NCBI GenBank assembly: GCA_934130235.1
Contig: CAKOXU010000001.1
Location: forward strand, 8,794 to 72,793
Length of the DNA stretch: 64,000 nucleotides
Direction of reading: 5' to 3'
DNA from: an uncultured Bacilli bacterium
Lineage (GTDB): Bacteria > Bacillota_I > Bacilli_A > RF39 > UBA660
Below the pieces are notes generated by a model. The model was given only the letters and a program-made list of their open reading frames with translations. It had not been told where the DNA came from and searched no databases. A program made the translations under genes and the position numbers. Shown here in pieces: positions 8,586 to 64,000 of the stretch; the first letter of the stretch is position 1; every line of letters starts with the position of its first letter.

Positions 8586-10106
8586 CTAAATGTACTCTAT
8601 ATAATTATTATAATCTTTAATTAGTTCTTTTATGAATATTGAAGGTCTCTTCTTATCTACTAATAAATATACATCCGTTTTAGTACGCGTTAAAGCTGCA
8701 TAAAAAAGTCTTCTTTCTTCTTCATATGGATAATTATCCTTGGAACGTTTAACATAACTTAAAATTTTCTCATCCTTCATTTTGTTTGGTATACCTAATA
8801 TATCATCTATATTATTTATTATAACAACACATTCGCTTTCTAATCCTTTTGATGCATGAATAGTTAAATACTTTATCTTAATATTCTTATATATTATGTA
8901 ACCATCAACACACTTAAAATATTTATTAATATCAAAATTATTTCTCCCTAGTATTAATATTTCTTTATGTTCTCCTATTACTATATCTAACAGTTTATAT
9001 AAATTATTAGAATACATAATTTTTATAGGCTTTTTAATATGTTTGTTTGATTTTAATTTTTTATATAATTGATGCTTGTTCTTCATAATAAATGAACCAG
9101 CCACATTAATAAGTTCTTGTGAATTTCTATATGTATTATTGATTCTCAGTATTTTTGAATAACCATAGTATTTTTTAAAATTGATAAACATTCCTATATC
9201 ACATCCATTAAATCTATATATAGACTGATAGTCATCTCCAACACATATAATTTTAGCTTTTGTTTTATCTATAATACTTTTTAATAGTAAATATCTAACA
9301 TAAGATGTATCTTGATATTCATCAACTATTATATATTTATATTTTAAATTTGTATCTTTTACTTTATCAATAGACAAAGTTATCATATCATTAAAATCAA
9401 TACTATTAGTACTTTTAAGTTCTTCTTCATACAAATAATAAATATCAAAAATAATACTAACCAAATATTTGTTTTTTTTAATTTTTAAAAAATAATCTAT
9501 TTTATAGTTATTAGTTTTAAATAAATTAATAAATGTTATGACAAGTTTTTTTAGATTTAAAAATTCTTTTGTTTTTAATATTTTACTATATTCAGTATCA
9601 ATATAACCTAAAATGTACTTAAGTCTCATAACCATTTCTGCATTATTATGAATAATACAATTAAAATACTCATCAATAATATATTCCAATGTATCAGTAG
9701 CTGAAATAGTATAACCTTTACCTATAATGTTTAAAGCAAGTTTATGAAATGTATATACCTTTATATTATAGTTATTATACTTTTTTAAATTTTTTTCTAA
9801 ATTTTTAGCAGCTTCTCTAGTAAAAGTAATACAAAGAATATCCTCTTCTTGTATCTGTTTCCTTTCAATTAAATACATAATCTTACCAATCATAGTAAGA
9901 CTTTTCCCACTCCCAGCTCCAGCTACTATAAGAGTAGATGTTTCATCTGTTATTACAGCTTTTCTTTGTTCTAAATCTAAAGAATATCCATTGACATTTG
10001 ATAATAAATTATCTGTATTATAAAGCTCTTTTTTTATAAAAATTTTATTTAATCTATTTATTTTAATTCTACTATATTTACTTTTATAAGTATTATCTAA
10101 ATACAT
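8586..10106 (-). CDS. Compact UvrD/PcrA-like SF1 DNA helicase (506 aa)
   Basis: Motifs I AGAGSGKS, II IIVDEYQD, III VGDDYQSIYRFNG, V TIHASKGLE and VI FYAALTRTKTDVYLL are all present. The 1B/2B accessory domains are very short. Confidence 0.8.
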   Translation of the reverse strand: MYLDNTYKSKYSRIKINRLNKIFIKKELYNTDNLLSNVNGYSLDLEQRKAVITDETSTLIVAGAGSGKSLTMIGKIMYLIERKQIQEEDILCITFTREAAKNLEKNLKKYNNYNIKVYTFHKLALNIIGKGYTISATDTLEYIIDEYFNCIIHNNAEMVMRLKYILGYIDTEYSKILKTKEFLNLKKLVITFINLFKTNNYKIDYFLKIKKNKYLVSIIFDIYYLYEEELKSTNSIDFNDMITLSIDKVKDTNLKYKYIIVDEYQDTSYVRYLLLKSIIDKTKAKIICVGDDYQSIYRFNGCDIGMFINFKKYYGYSKILRINNTYRNSQELINVAGSFIMKNKHQLYKKLKSNKHIKKPIKIMYSNNLYKLLDIVIGEHKEILILGRNNFDINKYFKCVDGYIIYKNIKIKYLTIHASKGLESECVVIINNIDDILGIPNKMKDEKILSYVKRSKDNYPYEEERRLFYAALTRTKTDVYLLVDKKRPSIFIKELIKDYNNYIEYI

Positions 10107-19202: not shown

Positions 19203-21536
19203 TCATTGCCATTTCCAATTCCTTACAGATTCCATGTCAATACCATATTCTTTTATATACCTTTTGTGATATTCTAACATGTCATCACACCATTTATCAA
19301 CTATATTTTTATTCTTTAAATCTAAATATTTTAAGGCATCCTTAATCAAGGAAAATCTATCTATTTTATTTTGTACACGCATATCAAATGGAGTTGTAAT
19401 AGTTCCTTCTTCTATATAACCATGAACATGTAAATTTTGATTAGTCCTATTATATGTCAATTCATGAATTAAATTTGGATATCCATGAAAATTAAATATT
19501 ATTGGTTTATCTTTTGTAAATAAATTATCATATGCCTCATTACTTAATCCATGAGGATGAACTTTATCTGATTGTAATCTCATTAAATCAACCACATTTA
19601 TAAATCTAATTTTTAAACTAGGATATATCTTGTTCAATATAGAAATAGCAGCTATAGACTCCAAAGTAGGCGTATCACCGCATCCAACCATTACTAAATC
19701 GGGATCACCATTATCATTAGATGCAAAGTTCCATATTCCTACGCCTTGCTTACAATGTTCTATAGCTTCATCCATTGTTAACCATTGTTCTCTTGGATGT
19801 TTAGAAGCTATAATAATATTAATATAGTTTTTACTTCTTATACAATGATCAAATACTGATAGTAAACAATTAGTATCAGCTGGTAAATATACTCGTGAAA
19901 TATCAGCTTTTTTTGTAATAACATGATTTAAAAAGCCTGGATCTTGATGTGTATAACCATTATGATCTTGTTGCCAAACATGCGAAGTAAGTAAATAATT
20001 TAATGAGCTTATAGGTTTTCTCCAATCTAATTCATTAGACACTTTCAACCATTTTGCATGTTGACTCATCATAGAATCAATTACTCTAACAAATGCTTCA
20101 TACGAATCAAAAACGCCATGTCTACCAGTAAGAATATATCCCTCTAACATTCCTTCACAAACATGTTCTGATAGATAAGAATCAATTACTCTACCATCAT
20201 CACTCAAAAATTCATCATTATCTTTTCTTTCGGCGTTAAATTGCCTATTTGTATCTTCAAAAATATGATTTAATCTATTAGACAAAGCCTCATCAGGGCC
20301 AAATACTCTAAAGTTATTTGGATTATTGCTGATTATATCTCTAATAAAATTACCAAGTTCCATCATGTCTTGTTTTATAACACTTCCAGGATATGGAACA
20401 TTTATTTCATACTTTCTAAAATTAGGAACATTTAACTCTTTAAGCAATAATCCTCCATTAGAATTTTTATTGCTACCCATTCTTAATTCTTTAGGCGGAA
20501 CAAGAATTTTTAAAACATCCTTAAATGTTCCATCTACATTAAACAAATCCTCTGGCTTATAACTTCTAAGCCAATTTTCAAGTGCCCTAACATCACTTTC
20601 ATTATTAATAGTAATTGGAACTTGATGTGCTCTAAAAGTTCCTTCTATTTGCTTATCTAATACTTTCTTTGGTCCAGTCCACCCTTTAGGAGTTTTTAAA
20701 ACTATCATAGGATAAATAGGTCTTTTTGTACTATCACTATTTTTTATGAGCTTAATCATAGACACACATTCATCCATAGCTTTAGCCATAGCATTGTGAT
20801 ATTCAATTGGTTCAGTATTGGAATTAATTTCTACAAATATAGGTAAATAACCGCAACCATATAAATAAAACTTTAATTCAGAAGTTGAAATACGTGATAA
20901 TATAGTTGGATTAGATATTTTATATCCATTTAAATGAAGAATAGGTAAAACTATACCATCTTTTTTTGGATTAATAAGTTTGTTTATGTTCCATGAAGTA
21001 GAAAGCGGACCAGTTTCTGCTTCACCATCACCTATTATACACGGAACTATTAAATCGGGGTTGTCTAATACTGCACCATATGCATGCATTAAACTATATC
21101 CTAATTCCCCACCTTCATTTATGCTTCCAGGTGTTTCAGGAGCAACATGACTTGATACACCACCTGGAAAAGAAAATTGCTTGAATAACTTTTGCATTCC
21201 TTCTATATCTTGAGTTATGTTTGGATAAACTTCTGTATAGCTACCTTCTAAATAAGTTTGAGATACACAAGCATTTCCCCCATGACCAGGGCCAACTACT
21301 AACATCATATTTAAATTATACTTTTTTATTATTCTGTTTAAATGAGTATATATAAAATTTTGCCCAGGAACAGTACCCCAATGTCCGACTATTTTTTTCT
21401 TTATATCATCTTTGTCAAGAGGTCTTAAAAGCAATGGATTAGAAAGTAAATATAATTGCCCTACAGCTAAATAATTACTAGCCCTAAAATATGCATCAAG
21501 CGCGACTACTTCCTCATTAGTTAATATTCTTTCCAT
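19203..21536 (-). CDS. xfp: Xylulose-5-P/fructose-6-P phosphoketolase
   Basis: GHWGTVPGQNFIY, EGGELGYSL and a TPP-binding region. About 777 aa. Confidence 0.9.
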   Translation of the reverse strand: MERILTNEEVVALDAYFRASNYLAVGQLYLLSNPLLLRPLDKDDIKKKIVGHWGTVPGQNFIYTHLNRIIKKYNLNMMLVVGPGHGGNACVSQTYLEGSYTEVYPNITQDIEGMQKLFKQFSFPGGVSSHVAPETPGSINEGGELGYSLMHAYGAVLDNPDLIVPCIIGDGEAETGPLSTSWNINKLINPKKDGIVLPILHLNGYKISNPTILSRISTSELKFYLYGCGYLPIFVEINSNTEPIEYHNAMAKAMDECVSMIKLIKNSDSTKRPIYPMIVLKTPKGWTGPKKVLDKQIEGTFRAHQVPITINNESDVRALENWLRSYKPEDLFNVDGTFKDVLKILVPPKELRMGSNKNSNGGLLLKELNVPNFRKYEINVPYPGSVIKQDMMELGNFIRDIISNNPNNFRVFGPDEALSNRLNHIFEDTNRQFNAERKDNDEFLSDDGRVIDSYLSEHVCEGMLEGYILTGRHGVFDSYEAFVRVIDSMMSQHAKWLKVSNELDWRKPISSLNYLLTSHVWQQDHNGYTHQDPGFLNHVITKKADISRVYLPADTNCLLSVFDHCIRSKNYINIIIASKHPREQWLTMDEAIEHCKQGVGIWNFASNDNGDPDLVMVGCGDTPTLESIAAISILNKIYPSLKIRFINVVDLMRLQSDKVHPHGLSNEAYDNLFTKDKPIIFNFHGYPNLIHELTYNRTNQNLHVHGYIEEGTITTPFDMRVQNKIDRFSLIKDALKYLDLKNKNIVDKWCDDMLEYHKRYIKEYGIDMESVRNWKWQ

Positions 21537-55054: not shown

Positions 55055-55456
55055 TTAATTAACTTGCTTTATATCAATTTTATCTTCAATAGTCGATACA
55101 ATTTTTGAATCAATATTCATATTTATAATTTGAACAACCGAACCATTTTCTATTCTAATAAATCCAGATTGTGGTTTTTTACCTTTCATATCAACTTTAA
55201 TACAATTATTTTCTATACAAATATTTCCATTTGAATCTATAGTATATAAGCCATCTATTGAATTTTTAGAATATAATTCTTCATGTGTTAGAGCTATTTC
55301 AACACCATGTATATATAATTCAACACCTCTAAGTGTGCTTGATTCCTGAGCTTTTGTAATTATATTTAACATAATTGGTACTGCGATTAGAGCTATTACG
55401 GCTAGTATTACTATTACCGCTAAAAGTTCTATCAATGTAAAACCTCTTTTTTTCAT
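55055..55456 (-). CDS. Prepilin-type (class III signal peptide) pilin/pseudopilin-like protein
   Basis: MKKRGFTLIELLAVIVILAVIALIA N-terminal cleavage/methylation motif. Confidence 0.7.
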   Translation of the reverse strand: MKKRGFTLIELLAVIVILAVIALIAVPIMLNIITKAQESSTLRGVELYIHGVEIALTHEELYSKNSIDGLYTIDSNGNICIENNCIKVDMKGKKPQSGFIRIENGSVVQIINMNIDSKIVSTIEDKIDIKQVN

Positions 55457-56028: not shown

Positions 56029-56874
56029 TTATCTCCTATCCAAGTTATGATATAAATCATATACTTCGCTTTTTTTCATACCACGTTCATGGGCAACTAT
56101 TTTTATTGCTTCCATAACACTATTATCTTCCAAATATAATTCAACATGTTCTTTAATTGATAAATTATTAAATTGATCTACTGAGTGATTTCCTTCAATT
56201 ACTATTACTAGCTCACCCTTATATTCATGATTTTGATCTATAATTTCTTTTATAGTTCCTCTATATATTTCTTCATATTTTTTTGTTATTTCCCGGGAAA
56301 TACTTATTTTACGGTTATTTCCCAAAATTTCACACATGTCGTTTAAAGTCTTTTTTATACGATGTGGTGCCTCATATAATATCAACGTAGCTGTTAGATT
56401 TTTTAAATTATTTAACTCTTTTTTTCTTGCACTATCTTTACTATTTAAAAAGCCATAATAATAAAATGGCATTGGAGAAATTCCAGAAGAAGTTAAAGCT
56501 GGTATAAGTGCGGTTGCACCTGGAAGACTAACCACATTAAAATTATTTTCTATAGCACATTTTGCAAGTTCATAACCCGGATCGCTTATAATAGGGGTTC
56601 CCCTATCACTGACAAGTCCAACATTTAAACCATTTGACAAATACTCAATCAATTTATTTTTGTTATTAGTTTCATTATAATTATGACTTGAAATAAGTTT
56701 TTTATTTATATCATAATATTTTAATAACTGACCTGTAACACGTGTATCTTCGCAAAAAATAATATCAACCATTTTTAATGTATTAATTGAACGTATAGTT
56801 ATATCCTCCATATTACCTATAGGAGTTGGTATTAAATATAATGTTGGAGTATTATTATAACTTTTTTGACTCAT
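56029..56874 (-). CDS. rsmI: 16S rRNA (cytidine1402-2'-O)-methyltransferase RsmI
   Basis: LYLIPTPIGNMEDITIRSINTLKMVDIIFCEDTR. Confidence 0.9.
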   Translation of the reverse strand: MSQKSYNNTPTLYLIPTPIGNMEDITIRSINTLKMVDIIFCEDTRVTGQLLKYYDINKKLISSHNYNETNNKNKLIEYLSNGLNVGLVSDRGTPIISDPGYELAKCAIENNFNVVSLPGATALIPALTSSGISPMPFYYYGFLNSKDSARKKELNNLKNLTATLILYEAPHRIKKTLNDMCEILGNNRKISISREITKKYEEIYRGTIKEIIDQNHEYKGELVIVIEGNHSVDQFNNLSIKEHVELYLEDNSVMEAIKIVAHERGMKKSEVYDLYHNLDRR

Positions 56875-62168: not shown

Positions 62169-62654
62169 CTATCTAATTTTTTTAAAAAATGATTTTATTA
62201 ATTTTTTGCATTCTTTTTCATTTATTTTTTGCACAATTTTTATATTATTAAGATGATTTAAATAACCATTTTTTATATTTTCTGTACCATAAACTATTTT
62301 TTTTATTCTAGCTTCTTTAATTGCACCGGAACACATCATACATGGTTCCATTGTGACATATAATGTACAATCATCTAATCTCCAATTTTTTCTTTTTTTA
62401 CACGCTTTATTTATACATAAGATTTCTGCGTGACTAAGACAATTTTTATTTTTTTCTTTTTTATTATGTGCTTTTGATATTATTTTATTTTTGTATGTTA
62501 TCACGCATCCTACTGGTATTTCATTTTTATAATATGCTTTTTTTGCCTCTTTTAATGCGATTTGCATATATTTTTTATCTAATGTTTCACGTGAAACATC
62601 GTTTATTTGATTTTTTTTATATGTTTCACGTGAAACATTATCTGTTTTTTTCAT
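62169..62654 (-). CDS. tadA: tRNA-specific adenosine deaminase TadA, possibly with an N-terminal extension; alternative start at 62567
   Basis: HAEILCI...MEPCMMCSGAI zinc motif. The ATG at 62654 has a perfect GGAGG RBS. The conserved core begins at MQIALKEAKKA (62567), which has no RBS. The 29 extra residues contain NVSRET and DVSRET, which are translations of two palindromic repeat copies. Confidence 0.8.
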   Translation of the reverse strand: MKKTDNVSRETYKKNQINDVSRETLDKKYMQIALKEAKKAYYKNEIPVGCVITYKNKIISKAHNKKEKNKNCLSHAEILCINKACKKRKNWRLDDCTLYVTMEPCMMCSGAIKEARIKKIVYGTENIKNGYLNHLNNIKIVQKINEKECKKLIKSFFKKIR

Positions 62655-62884
62655 ATATCCTCCTATGTTTCACGTGTAACATTACTTTTTATTATTCAGC
62701 TCTATGTTTCACGTGTAACATTATCTGTTTTTTATATTATATAAAAAAGCACACACATTTAGAGGCTTTTAAGGCTGCTGAATTCCTTCTCTGACCTGAT
62801 TCAAACATAAATGTTGTGCAACTATACTATATAATATTTTTACTTTTTTTACAACATTAAGTAATGTTTCACGTGAAACATTAC
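62582..62884. repeat. Cluster of five copies of one perfect palindrome ATGTTTCACGTG(A/T)AACAT
   Basis: Copies at 62582-62599, 62621-62638, 62665-62682 (variant GTGTAAC), 62704-62721 (variant GTGTAAC) and 62864-62881 (24-bp perfect palindrome 62861-62884). Spacings are 39, 44 and 39 bp. Copies 2 and 4 are each followed by TATCTGTTTTTT. Confidence 0.9.
62743..62822 (-). ncRNA. ffs: Small (4.5S-type, ~80 nt) SRP RNA
   Basis: Minus strand AUCAGGUCAGAGAAGGAAUUCAGCAGCC matches E. coli domain IV CCAGGUCAGGUCCGGAAGGAAGCAGCC, with compensatory UCC/GGA to GAA/UUC changes around the GGAA tetraloop. A closing helix GCACAACAUUUA / UAAAUGUGUGUGC is followed by U6. Candidate promoter TTGTAA, N17, TATAGT upstream. 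The ends are approximate. Confidence 0.7.
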
Positions 62885-62911
62885 TTAGATTATTATAATA
62901 AAAGAAGAAAC

Positions 62912-64000
62912 TTATTTAGTTTCTTCTTCTGATAAATCTTTTTGCTCATCTATAATTGAATCTACAACAGTAACAGTACTTACTATTTGATTATCTTTTA
63001 AATTAATTAAACGAACACCTTGTGCTACACGTCCTGTTGTTGAAATTTGTAATACTGGCATTCTAATTGTAATTCCATTATTTGTCATTATTAATACATC
63101 TGAATCATCTGTTATAGTTTTAAAAGATACAATATTTCCATTTTTTTCTGTAATATTTAAAGCTTTAACACCTTTACTACCTCTATGAGTTAATCTATAT
63201 TCAGAAATGTTTGTTTTTTTACCATAACCTCGTTCAGTAACTACAAGAATTTGTGTGTTATCTGAACTAGATACTTCCATATTAACAACTTTACCGTCTC
63301 CTAATTCTATTCCTTTAACACCAGAGGCAGTTCTTCCCATAATTCGAATTTCATTTTCATTGAATCTAATCATTCTACCGTTTGAACTAGCGATTAAAAT
63401 TTCATTTTTTTCATTTGTTATTTTTGCTGAAATTAATTGGTCTTGTTCTTTTAAAGTAATAGCTATTTTTCCAGAAGTACGAATATTTTCAAATTCAGAA
63501 AGCTTTGTTCTCTTAATATTTCCATTTTGTGTACAAAGTACAATATAATTATTATAATCCTCTTCTGTTGTTTTTAACATAGTTGTTACTTTCTCTTCTT
63601 TTTCTAATGGTAATAAATTAATTATTGGTAGGCCTTTTGATTGTCTACTAAATAATGGAACCTCATATCCTTTCATTCTATATACTTTACCTTTATTTGT
63701 AAAAAACATAATATAATCATGAGTTTTCATTGATAATATACTATCAACAACATCTTCATCAGTTGTAGTCATACCCTTAATTCCTACTCCACCTCTGTTT
63801 TGAGTTTTATAAGTTTCAGATGTTAATCTCTTAATATAACCTTTATTTGTTATAGTTATAATTATATCTTCTACTGGTATCAATGATTCATCATCTATAT
63901 AATCTACGGCTGTCATATCAATAGTAGTTCTTCTATCATCTGCATACTTTTTCTTTATTTCTAATAACTCATTTTTAATTATTTCTAATACTTTTTCTTC
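62912..64000 (-). CDS. gyrA: DNA gyrase subunit A, C-terminal beta-pinwheel domain; the gene continues beyond the window edge
   Basis: Repeated blades with GVKGI-like motifs and an acidic tail. The upstream frame continues to 64000 as ...EEKVLEIIKNELLEIKKKYADDRRTTID. Confidence 0.95.
   Translation of the reverse strand, partial: EEKVLEIIKNELLEIKKKYADDRRTTIDMTAVDYIDDESLIPVEDIIITITNKGYIKRLTSETYKTQNRGGVGIKGMTTTDEDVVDSILSMKTHDYIMFFTNKGKVYRMKGYEVPLFSRQSKGLPIINLLPLEKEEKVTTMLKTTEEDYNNYIVLCTQNGNIKRTKLSEFENIRTSGKIAITLKEQDQLISAKITNEKNEILIASSNGRMIRFNENEIRIMGRTASGVKGIELGDGKVVNMEVSSSDNTQILVVTERGYGKKTNISEYRLTHRGSKGVKALNITEKNGNIVSFKTITDDSDVLIMTNNGITIRMPVLQISTTGRVAQGVRLINLKDNQIVSTVTVVDSIIDEQKDLSEEETK

Follow-up and report, generated by a model that had tools for sequence, protein, structure and literature searches.

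Five palindromes around ffs in an uncultured Bacilli bacterium are very probably a dense, origin-proximal parS array

The 64,000-nucleotide stretch of DNA analyzed here (the window), from contig CAKOXU010000001.1 of an uncultured Bacilli bacterium, carries five copies of a short palindrome within 300 bp around ffs, the gene for the small signal recognition particle (SRP) RNA, and in the 5′ end of tadA. These palindromes are very probably chromosomal parS sites, the loading sites of a Spo0J-type ParB protein, and together would make up one dense, origin-proximal centromere ~9 kb to the right of dnaA. In all five copies the 16-bp core matches the ParB/Spo0J consensus TGTTNCACGTGAAACA without a mismatch, while only ~7e-5 perfect matches are expected by chance from base composition, and no other site with up to one mismatch to this 16-mer is present in the 64-kb window. 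This is the published parS consensus of B. subtilis and most chromosomes (PMC7022226); for B. subtilis Spo0J/ParB it goes back to Lin & Grossman 1998 and Livny et al. 2007 (via PMC7022226 and PMC8357415). As a positive control, the same scan of two Clostridia loci (L073, L078) found parS beside RAKG-type parB. The original prediction, made from the sequence of the window, held that the motif matches none of the known sites and offered, as one of three readings, a multi-site operator for an unknown dimeric regulator. The exact match to parS contradicts the first statement; it preserves from the second the multi-site DNA target of a dimeric protein. Because the match is exact, the binding protein is not unknown but should be ParB, and the primary role would be chromosome partition and SMC loading rather than gene regulation.

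The five copies, P1 to P5, share the sequence ATGTT[T/A]CACGTGAAACAT, lie between positions 62582 and 62881 and occur nowhere else in the 64 kb. Their starts are spaced by 39, 44, 39 and 160 bp, so that the number of copies, their uniqueness and the 39/44/39 periodicity that had been described are borne out by the coordinates. The genes of the locus are ordered gyrA (3′ end), ffs, tadA, dnaX, ybaB and recR on the minus strand. P1 (62582–62599, core 62583–62598; 18-mer ATGTTTCACGTGAAACAT, no mismatch to the consensus) is embedded in codons 19–24 of tadA, which read DVSRET, and P2 (62621–62638, core 62622–62637) in codons 6–11, which read NVSRET (NVTRET in strain L084 of the same species). P3 (62665–62682, core 62666–62681) abuts the Shine-Dalgarno (SD) sequence of tadA, in the start context AGGAGG-ATAT-ATG, and P4 (62704–62721, core 62705–62720) lies 14 nt past the 3′ end of ffs and its T-tract. 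P5 (18-mer 62864–62881, core 62865–62880) sits between the probable terminator hairpin of gyrA and a promoter-like site of ffs. This placement, including the peptides read from P1 and P2, agrees with what had been noticed and was confirmed from the Rfam hit to ffs and the tadA reading frame. The perfect symmetry attributed to the motif holds for P1, P2 and P5, which are perfect 18-bp palindromes, the symmetry of P5 extending to 30 bp (62858–62887), but not for P3 and P4, each of which has one asymmetric base (ATGTTTCACGTGTAACAT on the plus strand; the gene strand reads TGTTACACGTGAAACA). A unit of 83 bp with two parS is present in two copies in 62582–62733 (69 nt aligned, 78% identical) and is apparently the trace of array growth via tandem duplication.

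The array is close to the chromosomal origin, which is a defining feature of parS. Two contigs of the same species, L084 (99.74% identical to the window over 13.5 kb) and L088, extend past the window end and give the order noc-like gene, gidB, gidA, trmE, jag, yidC, rnpA, rpmH, dnaA, dnaN, a comK-like gene, recF, gyrB, gyrA, the five parS around ffs, tadA and dnaX. In these contigs the array is 8.9–9.2 kb from the start of dnaA, and DnaA-box-like 9-mers are found in the rpmH-dnaA and dnaA-dnaN spacers. No parS with up to two mismatches was detected outside the array from ~−7.6 kb to ~+74 kb around dnaA, and no copy of the palindrome lies beyond the 300-bp array in ~95 kb of this species. The array would identify the centromere of this chromosome and place oriC just beyond the window end.

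Sites of the same kind are found at the same place in related genomes. A scan with DnaX, limited to one genome per species, yielded 80 loci, the closest of them only 48% identical, and closer relatives were obtained through DnaA homologues (L081 and L175 with two sites each, L300 with five, L301 and L302 with six each). In 19 related low-GC uncultured Bacilli with the same synteny, 2–10 parS lie in the gyrA..dnaX interval (L001, L002, L004, L007, L009, L013, L020, L025, L027, L029, L031, L060, L064, L081, L175, L300–L302 and strain L084); L011 is the sole low-GC uncultured Bacilli relative with gyrA-ffs-tadA-dnaX synteny that does not have 2–10 parS there. Relatives sharing this synteny carry no copies outside the interval within the ±10 kb examined, and no parS was present in the equivalent region (dnaX ±10 kb) of Bacillus, Streptococcus, Lactobacillus and other genera. 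Within the interval, the number, spacing and position of the sites vary from relative to relative. They are confined to the upstream side of ffs in five genomes (L001, L013, L020, L031, L060), occupy both sides of it in the window, L009 and the sister species L300–L302, and in others are located between tadA and dnaX or within dnaX (L004, L009, L029). Several of the arrays are strictly periodic, with repeats of 44–45 bp (x7) in L009, ~125 bp (x5) in L020 and 167 bp in L060.

The sites have also entered coding sequence. In dnaX they are found in frame in the region for the variable linker of the protein (residues ~355–396; L004 11062 and 11131, L009 11095, 11140 and 11185, L029 11062), where they are always read VSRET, VPRET, VSRGT or VPRGT; the DnaX of the window has none. 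That one of these cases is an Erysipelotrichaceae genome suggests that the intragenic site is old. The tadA open reading frame (ORF) of the window (62169–62654, minus strand, 161 aa) carries P1 and P2 in an N-terminal extension of 29 aa (62568–62654). The TadA family profile matches residues 23–160 and leaves residues 1–22 outside, the TadA proteins of relatives align from approximately residue 25, and TadA of the sister species has 137 aa. It had been proposed to check whether tadA orthologs in relatives carry the 29-aa extension; judging from these alignments, it is confined to this species (with NVTRET in L084) and looks like a by-product of array expansion. The presence of parS in coding DNA explains why odd repeats of the peptide "VSRET" occur in TadA and DnaX proteins as annotated. 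Exact look-up of the window TadA, and of an ORF at 1851–2873, found nothing on record.

An alignment of 65 sites from 16 genomes (15 relatives and the window) reveals which bases are held constant and bears on whether the palindromes act as DNA or as RNA. Positions 2–4, 6–7, 10–11 and 13–15 are 100% invariant, the central positions 8/9 are 99% conserved, conservation is 95% at position 1/16 and the flanking A/T, and the flanks beyond ±1 are unconstrained. Position 5/12, which is N in the consensus, alone varies appreciably, as T or C, and 27 of the 65 sites are asymmetric there without compensation. Such uncompensated changes fit a protein half-site with one unread base and not a selected helix. 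Two of the readings first put forward treat the copies as RNA hairpins, one as a stalk for RNase III processing of the ffs precursor and another as a structured leader controlling tadA; the copies had also been described as a stack of terminators antisense to ffs and tadA. Every copy can indeed fold, and in this genus copies lie on both sides of ffs (62735–62830, minus strand; Rfam RF00169, 55.9 bits, full model), which is enclosed by the array. P5 in particular forms a 13-bp stem (−14.7 kcal/mol, z = −6) and is the sole match in a terminator-like scan, on the plus strand. The stack of terminators shrinks to this one copy, since the hairpins of P1–P4 reach only −1.8 to −7.1 kcal/mol (P1 and P2 −6 to −7, P3 −1.8, P4 −4.0), with P3 and P4 indistinguishable from shuffled sequence.

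The layout of the locus and of its counterparts argues against the RNA readings as well. ffs has its own terminal helix and T-tract before P4 is reached, and gyrA its own hairpin before P5. The sites of relatives may be anywhere in gyrA..dnaX, including non-transcribed DNA upstream of promoters and the middle of dnaX; most relatives' copies are all upstream of the ffs promoter or inside dnaX and therefore cannot flank an ffs precursor. A leader function at tadA is further weakened by the restriction of the TadA extension to one species. The array as a whole thus lacks the marks of an intrinsic terminator or functional RNA hairpin (stable stem, U-tract, compensatory change), and we consider it very improbable that the copies serve as an RNase III stalk, as antisense terminators or as a structured tadA leader.

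Comparison of strains shows that the parS bases are maintained in an otherwise unstable segment. The window and L084 differ over 13.5 kb by 24 substitutions and two indels, of which 12 substitutions and both indels fall in 62633–62736 (95 bp of array), ~140x the flanking rate. All of these 12 substitutions spare the specified bases of parS; three lie within cores, each of them at N (p = 0.003). Thus the array is fast-evolving and its 15 specified bases are protected; purifying selection on the site relative to its flanks, which was one of the parS features tested, is evident here. Clustering of the changes in this hypervariable patch (L084 9380–9500) may reflect gene conversion or unequal recombination among the repeat units. 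A 149-bp indel containing one parS distinguishes two strains of a sister species that have identical DnaA.

The duplicated 83-bp unit and the indels between strains would also be compatible with a dispersed repeat without local function, of the repetitive extragenic palindromic (REP) or miniature inverted-repeat transposable element (MITE) type, or another mobile-element repeat. The same could be said of the occurrence of the exact 18-mer ATGTTTCACGTGAAACAT on at least 120 IMG/VR contigs. Most of these contigs have one copy and a few have 2–3 copies at least 240 bp apart; they may represent phage or plasmid parS or misclassified chromosomal fragments, and they show only how ubiquitous the site is, mostly as single sites, as expected for parS. 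A dispersed repeat should not be limited to one place, but in ~95 kb of this species no copy lies beyond the array, and syntenic relatives have none outside gyrA..dnaX in their ±10 kb. Moreover, the array is flanked by core housekeeping genes without a transposase or integrase, and conservation ends ±1 bp beyond the 16-mer, leaving no longer element. A REP/MITE-like origin is accordingly hardly credible.

The identity of the cognate protein requires closer consideration, because the only ParB-family protein seen in this species, encoded beside gidB ~16 kb from the array, resembles Noc. Noc, a ParB paralogue, binds the Noc-binding site (NBS) TATTTCCCGGGAAATA (Wu et al. 2009; Jalal et al. 2020, PMC7383237), and ParB and Noc differ at four specificity residues (Caulobacter numbering), which are R173/T179/A184/G201 in ParB and QKKR in Noc; R173 is invariable among the variants specific for parS (Jalal et al. 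2020, PMC7383237). Q173 reads adenine 1 of the NBS and R201 its cytosine 6, and one lysine at 179 or 184 is enough (PMC7383237). The gidB-adjacent protein of this species (signature GERRYKA ... GKSQPSIANKIRLLN ... SERHAR) has Q173/K179/N184/R201, and among the gidB-adjacent homologues of the clade that match the motif, 81/81 are Q-(K/T)-x-R and 71/81 are QKNR. Because of these residues, we regard the protein as a Noc orthologue and not a parS binder. This assignment is based on the four residues, as NCBIfam does not separate the two families cleanly here: the gidB-adjacent protein scores 269–288 bits, below the Noc cut-off of 315, and Spo0J falls below that cut-off too. The noc-like genes (L088 1–720, L081 972–2858, L300 808–2238 and L302 938–2689, all on the minus strand) encode proteins of 476–628 aa in the clade. 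Their C-terminal half is long, acidic and of low complexity, and an amphipathic helix is not obvious at the N-terminus.

That the five copies are sites of this Noc-like protein rather than of a Spo0J-type ParB is nevertheless very doubtful. Position 2 of each of their half-sites is G instead of A, and position 7 is A instead of C (G1/A6 versus A1/C6 of the NBS), so that none of the five matches TATTTCCCGGGAAATA, and the protein's Q173/K179/N184/R201 would not suit them, R173 being required of parS binders (PMC7383237). A separate, perfect NBS exists in the window at 56287–56302, within a 281-aa TP_methylase (rsmI-like) ORF (56029–56874, minus strand), and no second NBS with up to three mismatches was found in the 64 kb. 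In 843 kb around the noc genes of relatives there are 26 NBS (up to one mismatch) and no parS, so the two types of site are kept distinct. The NBS of the window would imply that nucleoid occlusion through Noc and NBS is active in this small-genome lineage, and this clade of uncultured small-genome Bacilli keeps ParB-parS and Noc-NBS as separate systems. In many relatives (L094–L173, ~9700–9860, with the noc-like gene at 10001) an NBS with 0–1 mismatch precedes the noc-like start by 150–300 bp, within the 3′ end of gidB or after it; it may serve in autoregulation or nucleation. An NBS-like palindrome of variant sequence, TATTTCCTGGGAAAT(A), recurs in L301 (~19290–19305), L302 (~19400–19415) and L175 (21155), in the two sister species between ffs and tadA within the parS array.

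A Spo0J-type ParB with the residues needed for parS is encoded by relatives. Searching with the clade's own Spo0J-type ParB gave 120 hits at ≥70% identity, of which 118 match the motif, and all 118 have R173 and G, A or S at 201. A relative's contig of 169.8 kb contains tilS-ftsH-parA-parB (RIRG; R173/G201) and the noc-like gene, then dnaA, and then gyrA-[2 parS]-ffs-tadA-dnaX, the two loci being 32 kb apart across oriC. There, the start of parAB is ~12.5 kb beyond noc, a distance that the flanks of the other loci just fail to cover, and the sister species L300 has the same noc-uvrB junction. In keeping with this position, a metagenome scan with the N-terminus of the noc-like protein gave 80 loci in which parAB would mostly lie just outside the 10-kb flank, and in three of them (L132, L139, L147) soj-parB is 6 kb past noc. 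With regard to partner machinery, ScpA and ScpB are encoded in this species ~9–10 kb beyond the window start, and ParA is seen beside parB in relatives rather than in this species.

The following points weigh against assigning the array to a Spo0J-type ParB. First, the sole ParB-family protein seen in this species is of the Noc type, and its QKNR residues predict binding to NBS and not to parS. Second, no Spo0J-type ParB was recovered from this species, whose contigs end inside the noc-like gene, before the position of parAB inferred from relatives; the window itself gave no match to a GERRxRA regular expression or in tblastn with a Spo0J sequence, a query that did hit the L073 and L078 controls. 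Third, the spacing of 39–44 bp is far tighter than in the chromosomal systems that have been studied, so that simultaneous occupancy of the five sites, with clamps loaded at every one, is an assumption.

A role in gene regulation would be an alternative for sites placed so near to two genes. The copies might form an operator array controlling ffs, tadA or both, bound either by a dimeric regulator or by ParB in a second role as repressor or roadblock. In favor of this, 10 bp separate the core of P5 from a −35-like hexamer of ffs downstream of it (promoter-like site TTGTAA-17-TATAGT, 62826–62854, minus strand, a consensus match only), a weak promoter-like match overlaps with P4, and the tadA SD directly adjoins P3. 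The junction of parS and the tadA SD is conserved in the genus (L084, L300–L302), several relatives have a parS ~30–45 bp upstream of the start of ffs, and intergenic parS in P. aeruginosa are known to repress neighboring genes (PMC7022226). However, promoter matches in the scan were no commoner than in shuffled sequence, so the overlaps with copies are only suggestive, and the position of the sites relative to the starts of ffs and tadA is not conserved in the clade, where they may be only upstream, only downstream or, in three genomes, inside dnaX. The motif, furthermore, is the universal parS and not a locus-specific operator. We therefore regard an operator array as unlikely, and effects of ParB on ffs or tadA expression as possible but at most secondary. 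Identification of the element as parS removes a false lead, in that neither a new regulator nor a new RNA structure need be sought here.

If the array functions as parS, the helix-turn-helix domains of ParB dimers would recognize each 16-bp site, and the dimers would close into CTP-dependent clamps and slide onto the flanking DNA, as known from ParABS biology (PMC7333895, PMC8357415). We infer that ParB binding, spreading and SMC loading take place at the array. Five adjacent sites could then provide a single high-capacity nucleation point for a partition complex that would work with ParA (Soj) and load SMC-ScpAB, so that the chromosome arms would be aligned from next to oriC. The array would occupy, and grow by tandem duplication in, the scarce non-essential DNA of the gyrA-dnaX interval; its position around ffs and in the first codons of tadA would be a by-product, and sites in coding DNA would be tolerated only in the stop-free frame V-S/P-R-E/G-T. 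On one view, closely placed parS avoid SMC collisions, and the scattered layout of B. subtilis has been considered a peculiarity of that lineage (PMC8357415). Five sites within 300 bp should behave as one loading position, which fits this view.

Like the parS of B. subtilis, the sites described here have the identical 16-bp consensus, are origin-proximal, can lie in coding sequence, have Soj/ParA and SMC-ScpAB as expected partners and coexist with Noc/NBS. They differ in arrangement: B. subtilis has eight sites in the origin domain over ~0.75 Mb (PMC8357415), whereas here there are five in 300 bp at a single locus, and the array, instead of lying within or next to parB, is ~30 kb from where the relatives' gene order would place parAB. 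Tightly clustered parS of other chromosomes resemble the array in that several redundant sites near oriC act as one centromere and SMC loading zone. Their published spacing is hundreds of bp to several kb, in contrast to the true short-period tandem arrays of the window, L009 and L020, whose copy number varies between species and even strains. The sopC centromere of the F plasmid consists of 12 tandem 43-bp repeats, each with a 16-bp inverted repeat bound by SopB/ParB. The array shares with sopC its head-to-tail units of ~40 bp with one palindromic ParB-family site each, but sopC has a sequence of its own and is plasmid-borne beside sopAB, whereas the array is made of the universal chromosomal parS among housekeeping genes far from parAB. 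The array would work like a plasmid-type tandem centromere but is not a member of that class, in view of its chromosomal context and distance from parAB. The NBS belongs to the same family of 16-bp palindromes, departs from parS at only two positions in each half-site and is bound by a ParB paralogue encoded beside gidB; unlike the array, NBS are dispersed, and the perfect NBS of the window stands apart from the five copies.

The element is the well-known parS in a dense, fast-evolving tandem arrangement. It is modestly unusual in its short-period tandem layout, its fixed gyrA-ffs-tadA-dnaX place far from parAB, and its rapid turnover and in-frame intrusion into tadA and dnaX. Tandem arrays with varying copy number are natural variants for the study of ParB loading, SMC flux and the expression of neighboring genes. 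We tentatively propose, as a conjecture that may well prove wrong, that this lineage of low-GC gut Bacilli replaced the scattered parS typical of Bacilli by a single "regional centromere" of 2–10 perfect parS at gyrA-ffs-tadA-dnaX, across oriC from parAB, which grows, shrinks and turns over rapidly via unequal recombination and invades coding sequence in one tolerated frame. If this is true, copy number may tune the flux of ParB clamps and SMC loading, and the clade would offer a natural series for learning how the number and spacing of parS set the strength of a centromere.

Some features of the surroundings are recorded here. The 3′ part of gyrA (62912–64000, minus strand) bounds the array on the origin side, and a hairpin of the form AAGAAGAAAC-7 nt-GTTTCTTCTT (62902–62928) spans the gyrA stop and is followed on the minus strand by a T-rich run; it is probably the gyrA terminator, although a simple terminator scan did not flag it. 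Between pth and mfd, the window encodes a 133-aa protein with an N_methyl (type IV pilin-like prepilin) motif (55055–55456, minus strand; L084 16662–17063). Throughout the clade, a ComK-family gene of ~150 aa is located between dnaN and recF (L084 3048–3521, L081 12747–13211, L175 12745–13194, L300 12794–13246), an unusual place for a homologue of a competence regulator.

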